Assembly: GCA_963805625.1 (NCBI GenBank)
Contig: CAWDVE010000010.1
Span: forward strand, 704,001-768,000
Reading direction: 5' to 3'
Source: an uncultured Candidatus Rokubacteria bacterium
GTDB taxonomy: Bacteria; Methylomirabilota; Methylomirabilia; Rokubacteriales; DASRDR01
Length of the DNA: 64,000 bases
This document shows positions 21,093-50,301 of this stretch, in pieces. The notes beneath the pieces were generated by a model. That model did no database searches. It was not told where the DNA came from and saw nothing but the letters and a program-made list of their open reading frames with translations. Within the stretch, counting starts at the first letter, position 1; each line of letters opens with the position of its first letter. A program made the position numbers and the translations under genes.

Positions 21093-21842
21093 GTGCCCGA
21101 CAAGAAAGCGGTTCTCTACCACCGCCCCGGCTGAAGCTCCTGCGCCAAGACGAGAGAGTTGCTCTCGTCGTGGGGAGTGCCGTTCGACTCGGTCGACATC
21201 GAGGCCGAGCCGGCCGCGCGCGCCGACCTGAAACGCCTCGGCGTGCCGGCGGTCCCCGCCGTCGTCGCGGTCGGAGGCGTGGTCCACGGCTGGAATCCGG
21301 GCGCGCTCGCAGAGCTGGTCGGCGTCCGGTACGAAGGCGCTCAGCGGCTCTCCCCGGCCGCGCTCGCCGAGCGCCTCGACCGGGTCCTCGCCGCGGTGGG
21401 CCGGGTGGTCCAGACCGTCGCGCCCGAGCACCTGAGTCTCCAGCACCCCGGCCGCGATCGCTCGCTCCACCAGCTCGCCTACCACCTCTTCCGGCTGAGC
21501 CTCGCCTACCGGGACGCCATGCTCGAGCGCCGCCTCCCCGAGACCTGGCTCCAGGAGATGGCACCCGCGGGGCTGCCCGACGGTCCCGCCCTCGCAGGAT
21601 ACGGTGCGGCCGTGCGCGTGGCGTTGCAGGGTTCGTTCGGCACCGAGGCGGCGACCGTCGGGACCGTCGAGACGTACTATGGTGCCCAGAGCGCCCACGA
21701 GCTTCTCGAGCGCACGGTCTGGCACGCGGCCCAGCACCTACGCCAGATCCACGCGCTCCTCGAGGACGCCGGGGCGCCGCCGCCGGAGCCGCTCGACCGG
21801 TCGCTCCTCGTGGGACTCCCGCTCCCGCAGTCGGTCTGGTAG
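21093..21842 (+). CDS. Predicted selenoprotein: glutaredoxin-like (UxxC) domain fused to a DinB-like domain
   Basis: GTG 21093 reads PDKKAVLYHRPG-TGA(21132-21134)-SSCAKTRELLSSWGVPFDSVDI in frame with the track ORF 21159..21842; VPAV cis-Pro motif; DinB His residues in LAYH and WHAAQH; SECIS-like hairpin follows. Confidence 0.85.
21149..21169 (+). promoter_or_regulatory. Putative bacterial SECIS element
   Basis: gacgagag-AGTTG-ctctcgtc, a perfect 8-bp stem; loop G (followed by U) is 24 nt after the UGA. Confidence 0.75.
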
Positions 21843-48701: not shown

Positions 48702-49454
48702 TCACTGGAAGTCGAGGTCGCGCAAGTGGTCGGGATCGAGCGCCTCCAGGGCCGCAAGCTCAGCCGCTGTCGGCGGCGCGAGGAGCTCGATCTCCCCGAG
48801 CGCCTCGACCGCGAAGCCCGTTTGGCGCGTCACCTCCTCCAGCGTGGCGTCCGGCTGGAGCGCTTCGAGCCGCAACCCCGCCGGCGTCGCGCGGAACACG
48901 GCGAGCGGCGTCACCACGCGGTCGAGATTCCCGGTCGCGGTAACGAAGTCGACCGAGGACACGAGCGAGGCAAGGTCGTGCCGCGTCCGGAAGACGATCA
49001 CACGCCGGACGACCTGGAACAGCACAGCCGCGCCCCCACCCCCGGGCAGGCGGACCCGAGGCCGGGTGAAGTCCCCGATGACGGTGGAGTTGACGCGGCC
49101 CCGGCCGTCGACCTGTACGCAGCCGAGCAGCATCACGTCAATCCGGCCGCGCAGCGCCAGCTGGTAGACGTCGACGTTCGAGAGCACGACGGGCGATCCG
49201 GTCAGCCAGCCGGGACCCGATGATGAGCGCGGGAGCGTGTCCGGAGCACCGTCCAGACCGCCCCCGATCGAGATGTGGCGAAGCCGCGGGGCGTGGAGTC
49301 GCCGGGCAAGGGCCAGCGCGAGCGACGGCAGGACAGAGTTCACACCGTGGCACGCCACCTCGCCGTCACGGACCAGACGGGCGAGGGTGACGGCCATCAT
49401 CTCGGGAACGCCCACCACCCCGGCGGCCCGCCCCTCGGACTTCCCCACGATCAT
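48702..49454 (-). CDS. Family I CoA-transferase-fold beta subunit (GctB-like)
   Basis: LARRLHAP, LGCVQVDGRGRVNST, RLPGGGGA, VDFVTA, VVTPLAVF. Confidence 0.85.
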   Translation of the reverse strand: MIVGKSEGRAAGVVGVPEMMAVTLARLVRDGEVACHGVNSVLPSLALALARRLHAPRLRHISIGGGLDGAPDTLPRSSSGPGWLTGSPVVLSNVDVYQLALRGRIDVMLLGCVQVDGRGRVNSTVIGDFTRPRVRLPGGGGAAVLFQVVRRVIVFRTRHDLASLVSSVDFVTATGNLDRVVTPLAVFRATPAGLRLEALQPDATLEEVTRQTGFAVEALGEIELLAPPTAAELAALEALDPDHLRDLDFQ

Positions 49455-49497
49455 GGGCGCGCCCTGGGGTTGCTCGGACGGCCCTGGGTCGGTGGGC

Positions 49498-50301
49498 TCA
49501 AGGGGTCGACTCGAGGTACGCGCGGAGCCCTTCGAGTGTTCGTGCAGCCTCGAGGTACCGGCGCACGCTCGCCTCGTCGATGTCGTAATACCCCGGGCAA
49601 CCGCCCGGCCGGGCGCCTCCGGGCAGCTCGACCACGGACGCAACGGACAGCTCGGAAATTCGCGTCAGCTCGGGGATCCGGGCCAGCTCCTCCGGCGGAA
49701 CGATGCGCTCCGCCGTGAGGATCACCTCATCCGCCGCCTGGGCCATCAACACGTCGTAGCCGGGCGACCCGACGATACGGGCGTTCCCGGCGGCATCCGC
49801 CTCCTGGACGTGGAGAATGGCCCAGCGTGGCCGGAGCGCTGGCACCACGTAGATCTCGTCCCCCGTCCACGGATCCTTCACGGTCCGGAAATCCGCCGTG
49901 GCTGGCAGGTCGGTATCCCGGAAGCCGGGGACCGGCTCGAACGGCACGCCCAGGGATGCGGCCCGCAGCCCCGCCATCACGCCCACTCAGGAGAACTCGC
50001 GCACCCGGATGAGCCCGGCCTCGACAGCCCGGCGGTAGTTCGGGAGGGCACCGCCAAAGGCTGACTCGAGGGACGCGACACCGGCGTCCACCTCCGCAAG
50101 GCACCCGGAGGCGCAGAGAAGGTCGAGGTCGTAGGAGGGTGAGGGCTTGGACAGGCGGAGATTCCGCCGCCCCTGGCGAGCGAGTTCCCGGACGAACGCC
50201 GCCGGGATGCGGTGCAGCATCACGCCGCCGATAGTGATGTGGTCCCCGTCCGCGACGAGCGACGCCGCCCGTGCCAGCGAGACGAGCTTCCCTTCACTCA
50301 T
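49498..50301 (-). CDS. Predicted selenoprotein: family I CoA-transferase-fold alpha subunit (GctA/IpdA-like)
   Basis: Track ORFs 49987..50301 and 49498..49986 are contiguous and in frame across one TGA (49989-49987): ...VREFS-U-VGVMAGLRAASLGVPF...; HVQEADAAGN; SECIS-like hairpin follows. Confidence 0.8.
49952..49972 (-). promoter_or_regulatory. Putative bacterial SECIS element
   Basis: Minus strand gggg-c-tgcg-GGC-cgca-t-ccct; first loop G is 24 nt after the UGA. Confidence 0.55.

Follow-up and report, generated by a model that had tools for sequence, protein, structure and literature searches.

A predicted selenocysteine in a CoA-transferase-fold enzyme of an uncultured Rokubacteria bacterium, with a possible role in reductive thioether cleavage

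A 64,000-nucleotide stretch of an uncultured Candidatus Rokubacteria bacterium (assembly GCA_963805625.1, contig CAWDVE010000010.1, positions 704,001 to 768,000; hereafter the window) carries adjacent genes for the alpha and beta subunits of an enzyme with the coenzyme A (CoA)-transferase fold, and the alpha frame is interrupted by a TGA codon. Does this codon encode selenocysteine (Sec), and what would Sec do in such an enzyme? An earlier note, made from the sequence alone, had proposed an active-site Sec in a repurposed acyl-CoA enzyme of a non-redox type, and had suggested looking at the UGA column in database homologs, at raw reads and at the Sec machinery of the genome. Our comparison of sequences from relatives makes it almost certain that the alpha gene encodes a selenoprotein, UGA105 being predicted as Sec. 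The features of the locus are the following.

49498..50301, minus strand: alpha subunit gene, CoA-transferase fold of the Gct/IpdA/AibA kind, 267 aa with U105 (assigned from PF01144, a structure model and template modelling (TM) score matches)
49987..49989, minus strand: in-frame TGA, codon 105, predicted Sec; first residue of helix 105-117 and column of IpdA Glu105
49951..49973, minus strand: hairpin resembling a Sec insertion sequence (SECIS), at +14 to +36 after the TGA, with loop GGC at +24 to +26
48702..49454, minus strand: gene for the beta subunit, 250 aa if read from the first ATG, starting 43 bases past the alpha stop
49266..49268, minus strand: beta Ile63, aligned with the catalytic Glu of GctB and with Cys56 of AibB

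The TGA codon and its decoding

The alpha open reading frame has 267 codons, and its sole internal stop is, as the earlier note had said, the TGA at codon 105 (50301 to 49498, minus strand), in the context VREFS-U-VGVMAGLRAASLGVPF. Among the 120 best protein matches listed, all 65 full-length proteins have a Cys at column 105, while the other 55 are fragments of 149-160 aa with a start called downstream of the UGA; the databases hide the family as two truncated 'glutaconate CoA-transferase' pieces. The 137 locus alignments over this column, a count that includes the window itself and duplicate fetches, showed 83 TGA, 51 Cys codons, 2 Glu and 1 His. The TGA holds this one column in relatives from 36% to 94% identity and is exchanged only with Cys codons. 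Ten further TGA genes were present among 20 regions fetched from Bacillota (a draw of 401 genomes from the phylum of G251, 23 of which matched). Contigs of runs X1 and X5, which come from different studies, span the alpha TGA with zero base differences, X1 being possibly the source sample of the assembly; no RNA data set was listed as carrying the sequence. A TGA read as Trp, or present by error, was ruled out by the alternation with Cys codons alone and by the agreement of the independent contigs.

We then compared the hairpin on distinct downstream sequences, 53 from TGA genes and 47 from Cys genes. The pairs +21:+29, +22:+28 and +18:+32 were formed in all 53 TGA sequences, versus 30, 38 and 26 of the 47 Cys sequences, respectively, and the +21:+29 pair of the TGA sequences was G-C in 43 and C-G in 10. 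Synonymous resampling gave a mean z of -1.49 for TGA genes and -0.34 for Cys genes (p=9e-7, a value inflated by kinship). By this comparison, TGA genes retain the hairpin and Cys genes do not. The hairpin of the window taken alone was not significant (p=0.07 against synonymous-codon resampling) and a G at +24 is found in Cys genes too, so the hairpin evidence is comparative and not that of a single gene. The loop G at +24 was rejected as a discriminator (39/53 TGA genes but also 25/47 Cys genes, the loop being shifted in 14 TGA genes). It does stand at the same offset as in the other Sec candidate of the window, as the earlier note had it. This second in-frame TGA (21132-21134, plus strand) lies in a UxxC frame, YHRPG-U-SSC, which we take to be glutaredoxin-like, and is followed by a strong hairpin with its loop at +23 to +27 and a G at +24; it is probably a selenoprotein gene of a known kind.

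The genome of the window (G000) carries tRNA-Sec (selC), selA and selD, and its selB is split over two frames in the assembly (G000:C21 near 224981; L002:1485). Contigs of runs X1 and X2, otherwise identical, hold one additional base in selB; since they carry the missing base, the frameshift is an assembly error, and a dead Sec system in this genome was thereby ruled out. The TGA-bearing genomes that were tested contained selB in 24/25 cases and selA in 23/25 in Methylomirabilota, and selB in 10/10 in Bacillota, while selB was not found in the one Cys-form Bacillota genome checked. The genome G170 (98% complete) is an exception, perhaps through an assembly gap or a misbinned contig: its locus L056 (G170:C81) has both the TGA and the hairpin, and neither selA nor selB was found. 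A same-genus relative (G242, L018/L007) has TGC at codon 105, has retained most of the hairpin and contains selA and selB; it is likely a recent Sec-to-Cys reversion.

These results bear on the alternative that the TGA is a true stop, a sequencing error or the mark of a pseudogene, so that the gene would be split or dead. The p value of the window hairpin, the frameshifted selB of this assembly and the exception of G170 speak for it, but it is hardly credible against a TGA confined to a single column over such a range of identity and alternating solely with Cys, a hairpin maintained in the TGA genes, selB in nearly all of the TGA-bearing genomes, and contigs of independent runs that contain both the TGA and the base lacking in the assembled selB. 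The proposal of a probable Sec at alpha-105 is thus supported by the Cys/TGA conservation, the comparative hairpin and the Sec machinery.

In trees from which the Sec and SECIS columns had been left out, Sec fell into three supported groups (99, 99 and 100), each of which also contains Cys members. The approximately unbiased test rejected Sec clades A and B as one group (p=0.02, the groups having been named after the tree was seen). A strict genome-wide SECIS scan gave 8 matches and missed selD and the UxxC gene of the window, so that its output is not a selenoproteome. A further candidate selenoprotein lies outside the window (G000:C10:1705164, minus strand), its CxxU motif having a hairpin of 8 pairs downstream.

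Residues of the alpha/beta pair and comparison with known enzymes

The structure model of the alpha subunit (predicted local distance difference test score 93.5) has residue 105 opening the helix 105-117, and its fold matches AibA, GctA and IpdA with TM scores of 0.86-0.92. Both subunits match PF01144 with scores below the cut-offs of the named NCBIfam transferase families, and no seleno-family of NCBIfam June 2026 matched either of them. The beta segment in question reads HAPRLRHISIGG and has no Glu. Ile63 aligned directly with AibB Cys56; a paralog in the same genome that has the Glu served as the bridge to the GctB Glu. The corresponding column of 68 partner betas holds 55 Ile, 9 Val, 4 Leu and 0 Glu, which bears out the earlier statement that the catalytic Glu is missing; many beta homologs are called from a later start, giving 231-239 aa. 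The paralog is a separate pair (L147, C16:565819-567487) with an Asn at alpha column 105 and the canonical beta Glu, and is likely the true Gct-type CoA-transferase of this genome. The betas of the second Methylomirabilota Sec lineage (L050-L059) do not have much of the loop that follows the canonical-Glu strand, so their pocket should differ, and perhaps their substrate too.

Comparison with GctAB, the family I glutaconate CoA-transferase (PDB 1POI), showed the same arrangement of PF01144 alpha and beta genes and a TM score of 0.92; however, GctB has its Glu where Ile63 stands here, and GctA has a Gln at column 105. The best sequence match was to AibA/AibB (LiuB), the 3-methylglutaconyl-CoA decarboxylase (PDB 5MZW-5N03; E 4e-38 for alpha and 8e-35 for beta), likewise a repurposed transferase fold without the Glu. 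In that enzyme column 105 is a Gly, and Cys56 of AibB occupies the position of Ile63, so that the thiol is on the opposite subunit. IpdAB (PDB 6CO6, 6CO9, 6COJ, 6CON) is similar in fold (TM 0.90-0.91) and has its residue 105 in the same column. The Cys/U column of the query aligned without gaps to E in 6CO6 and 6CON and to A in 6COJ, which is titled 'IpdAB E105A COCHEA-CoA complex', so the alignment given in the earlier note was correct. We take IpdA Glu105 to be catalytic and the IpdAB beta to be without the Glu. The two pairs differ in Glu105 versus Sec/Cys, in sequence (about 30% identity), and in chemistry, hydrolytic there and predicted as redox here. IpdAB is a retro-Claisen hydrolase according to PMC6678751. 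None of the annotated neighbours of the window gene and its relatives were steroid-catabolism genes.

Column 105 was also read in 150 distant representatives, with Glu in 63, Cys in 32, Asn in 19, Gly in 11, His in 6 and another residue or a gap in 19; because of this spread we regard it as a function-defining site. Judged by the defining residues in these alignments, the pair belongs to none of GctAB, IpdAB and AibAB, and it is very probably not a classical CoA-transferase. The analysis also bears out the earlier view of a repurposed acyl-CoA enzyme, Sec being its likely nucleophile, along with the IpdA Glu105 column and the absence of the canonical beta Glu. Glu is the commonest residue at column 105 of the distant representatives (P0244-P0393, 63/150), and therefore many proteins labelled as glutaconate CoA-transferase may be IpdA-like non-transferases.

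Gene neighbourhoods and the predicted reaction

The neighbours of the pair in the window, a flavin amine oxidase upstream (retained in 3/13 close loci) and Mrp/ApbC downstream (10/13), give no hint of a substrate, and for this reason the neighbourhoods of relatives were used. Among the 20 Bacillota regions, disulfide-reductase-like genes were present within about 10 kb in 9/11 Cys/Sec loci (7 HdrABC-like and 2 CoA-disulfide-reductase-like) and in 0/9 loci of the Glu/Asn paralogs (Fisher p=3e-4, overstated by kinship). The HdrA/B scores at the Hdr loci were below the methanogen cut-offs. Six of these loci also carry an ordinary-looking CoA-transferase pair, and five carry a major facilitator superfamily transporter. 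An Asn-type paralog pair whose beta has a Glu near the canonical site is present at four Hdr loci, and a CoA-transferase of the 3-oxoacid type at two. A CoA-disulfide reductase fused to rhodanese adjoins L187. In the tree, the lineage of the window, the Hdr-linked Sec group and the Cys group linked to CoA-disulfide reductase were placed in one set (support 84).

Several loci of Cys members point to a substrate. In Acetoanaerobium (L149), one gene run contains the Cys pair, a methylthioribose kinase, MtnA, a class II aldolase, an aldehyde dehydrogenase, a phosphate propanoyltransferase and a CoA-disulfide reductase, a route that would yield methylthioacetyl-CoA. The run (Acetoanaerobium noterae L149:961-15693) looks like a microcompartment operon for methylthioribose catabolism, its small proteins being presumably the shells, and no description of such an operon in A. 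noterae was found in the parts of the literature covered by the searches. At L011/L182, a dehydratase, an aldolase, an acetylating aldehyde dehydrogenase, a GntP permease and a CoA-disulfide reductase lie directly upstream of the pair. A plasmid search gave 33 records, of which 9 were opened. All four 'CoA-transferases' of alkene/coenzyme-M clusters (Nocardioides JS614, Mycolicibacterium NBB4 twice, Xanthobacter Py2; unassayed) have Cys105, at 37-40% identity, and these Cys members adjoin an acyl-CoA ligase and a flavin adenine dinucleotide (FAD) oxidoreductase; three other plasmid matches have Glu, Asn or His at column 105 and no such genes within 6 kb. They differ from the window pair in having Cys and not Sec, in forming a separate tree group and in the beta residues described below. 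According to PMC11507031 and PMC6440738, ethene is converted to acetyl-CoA by mostly unconfirmed steps, one of them assigned to a 'CoA transferase'. In Caballeronia NK8, the neighbours of a Cys member are a ligase, a crotonase and a family III transferase. Most neighbouring ligases score below all curated cut-offs, and ligase specificity was discarded as a substrate clue, the best solved match of one being oxalyl-CoA synthetase, which is not diagnostic.

The common denominator of the informative loci is a thioether-bearing acetyl-CoA together with a disulfide reductase, from which we propose a model of reductive sulfur removal. The alpha/beta pair is predicted, with a slight preference on our part, to cleave the C-S bond of R-S-CH2-CO-SCoA reductively, giving acetyl-CoA. 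UGA105 would be decoded by SelB and tRNA-Sec, and R-S-acetyl-CoA (R being methyl, coenzyme M or another group) would come from the action of an acyl-CoA ligase, of an acylating aldehyde dehydrogenase or of an ordinary CoA-transferase. From its place at the N-terminal end of helix 105-117, the selenolate would attack the thioether sulfur, acetyl-CoA departing as the enolate and leaving the mixed selenenyl-sulfide enzyme-Se-S-R (a disulfide for Cys105), or it might attack the alpha-carbon in the style of glycine reductase with the same net outcome. CoA or another thiol would free R-S-S-CoA, which a CoA-disulfide reductase or an HdrABC-like complex would reduce to RSH. All of these chemical steps are inferred; the fold, the missing beta Glu, the Cys/TGA conservation, the hairpin and the Sec machinery were observed.

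Chemical analogues of such a reaction exist on unrelated folds, none of which handles a CoA thioester on a transferase scaffold. In 2-ketopropyl-CoM oxidoreductase/carboxylase and in the omega-class glutathione transferases/LigG, a thiolate attack strips a heteroatom alpha to a carbonyl and reduction recycles the enzyme. The selenolate analogue is GrdB of glycine reductase (PMC13188914, section 7). The description of the enzyme as a non-redox type of selenoenzyme was not supported, since the ties of the Cys/Sec relatives to disulfide reductases and to pathways of sulfur-substituted acetyl-CoA point to a redox cycle at Sec.

Several results weigh against reductive cleavage. No disulfide reductase, ligase or sulfur gene was present at positions 40-60 kb of the window or in any fetched Methylomirabilota locus, the reductase-like genes of the window's genome are located elsewhere only (33-37% identity), and most metagenome loci have no disulfide reductase nearby. 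Because the seven Hdr loci and L187 group as a single clade, the number of independent lineages behind the link is about three. The tree set uniting the window lineage with the reductase-linked groups is unstarred at its support of 84, and the Cys group of the coenzyme-M clusters lies outside it. The clade-B Sec loci L195 and L197 show no reductase. A second draw from the phylum gave one new member, G660, the sole out-of-sample Cys locus, which has no reductase within 9 kb downstream and whose contig ends about 0.5 kb upstream; a class-level search of 6 genomes gave nothing new. In three of the four alkene-cluster betas, a Glu lies at most one residue away from the canonical site (LLVEG), so these proteins could still be transferases. 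Finally, it is the IpdA alignment that suggests a contact of Sec105 with the substrate.

Some of these points favour non-redox covalent or base catalysis, in which Sec105 would attack the beta-keto or enoyl carbon of a sulfur-free acyl-CoA as IpdA Glu105 does, with thiolase-like retro-Claisen cleavage, isomerisation or thioester hydrolysis as the outcome. The shared IpdA Glu105 column, the acyl-CoA ligases beside several Cys members, the family III transferases, crotonase and thiolase beside others, and the window without a reductase neighbour are all consistent with it. We consider it somewhat unlikely, as it leaves unexplained both the methylthioribose and coenzyme-M contexts and the three unrelated types of disulfide reductase found beside Cys/Sec and not Glu/Asn members. 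Another sulfur chemistry, whether beta-elimination of a thiol from 3-thio-propionyl-CoA or transfer of a persulfide or thiol to CoA (CoAlation/de-CoAlation), would fit the rhodanese-fused reductase beside L187, the rhodanese beside L104, the cysteine-dioxygenase-like gene and family III transferase beside L115, and the lower-scoring match, under the cut-off, of the L092-type ligase to 3-(methylthio)propionyl-CoA ligase. Elimination requires no reductase, though, and two-carbon acyls would be the product both of the ethene route and of the routes through an aldolase and an acylating dehydrogenase (L149, L182), which makes this chemistry quite unlikely.

The fold and the database names, the 'CoA transferase' step of the ethene literature and the Glu retained in some alkene-cluster betas would suit an enzyme that is still a CoA-transferase, its glutamyl anhydride replaced by an acyl-selenoester or acyl-cysteine as the intermediate. 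Such an enzyme would be redundant at loci that hold ordinary transferases or ligases, and the absence of Glu from all 68 beta partners and the separate Glu-bearing paralog of this genome also count against it; we regard it as very improbable.

Extent and significance of the family

The family to which the window pair belongs occurs in Methylomirabilota, in Bacillota and on metagenome contigs without assignment; cultured bacteria have Cys forms. We suggest tentatively, and with slightly less than even confidence, that this widespread and uncatalogued Sec/Cys family consists of reductive thioether lyases that would free coenzyme M in ethene and vinyl-chloride assimilation, release methanethiol from methylthioribose and feed CoA heterodisulfides to bacterial HdrABC-like complexes, Sec occurring in three separate lineages. 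If so, the unconfirmed coenzyme-M removal step of ethene assimilation would have a candidate enzyme, methylthioribose could be converted to acetyl-CoA and methanethiol, and a possible substrate would be at hand for some bacterial Hdr-like complexes.

Whatever the mechanism, this is an additional selenoprotein family, and its fold had not been listed among those that use selenium. The 2026 table of 119 prokaryotic selenoprotein families contains no PF01144 or CoA-transferase row (PMC13188914, Table 1), and the catalogues examined, namely that table and parts of PMC12013277 that include its Table 3, do not list this family. A word search of the main text of PMC13326102 gave 0 matches, and the matches shown from one of its supplements, in truncated form, were species names; its family list may bear on novelty. 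Neither a Sec-containing protein of the CoA-transferase fold nor a thioether-cleaving reaction of this kind was found in the literature, at the level of titles and abstract openings and with few subscription journals. Non-redox use of Sec would not be new by itself, because the 2026 table already lists arsenite methyltransferase, glutamine amidotransferase and methylated-DNA-protein-cysteine methyltransferase, families without an obvious redox role (PMC13188914).

At L195 (7428-8738), a Sec member lies beside genes for spermidine synthase and S-adenosylmethionine decarboxylase on the opposite strand, two enzymes that make methylthioadenosine.
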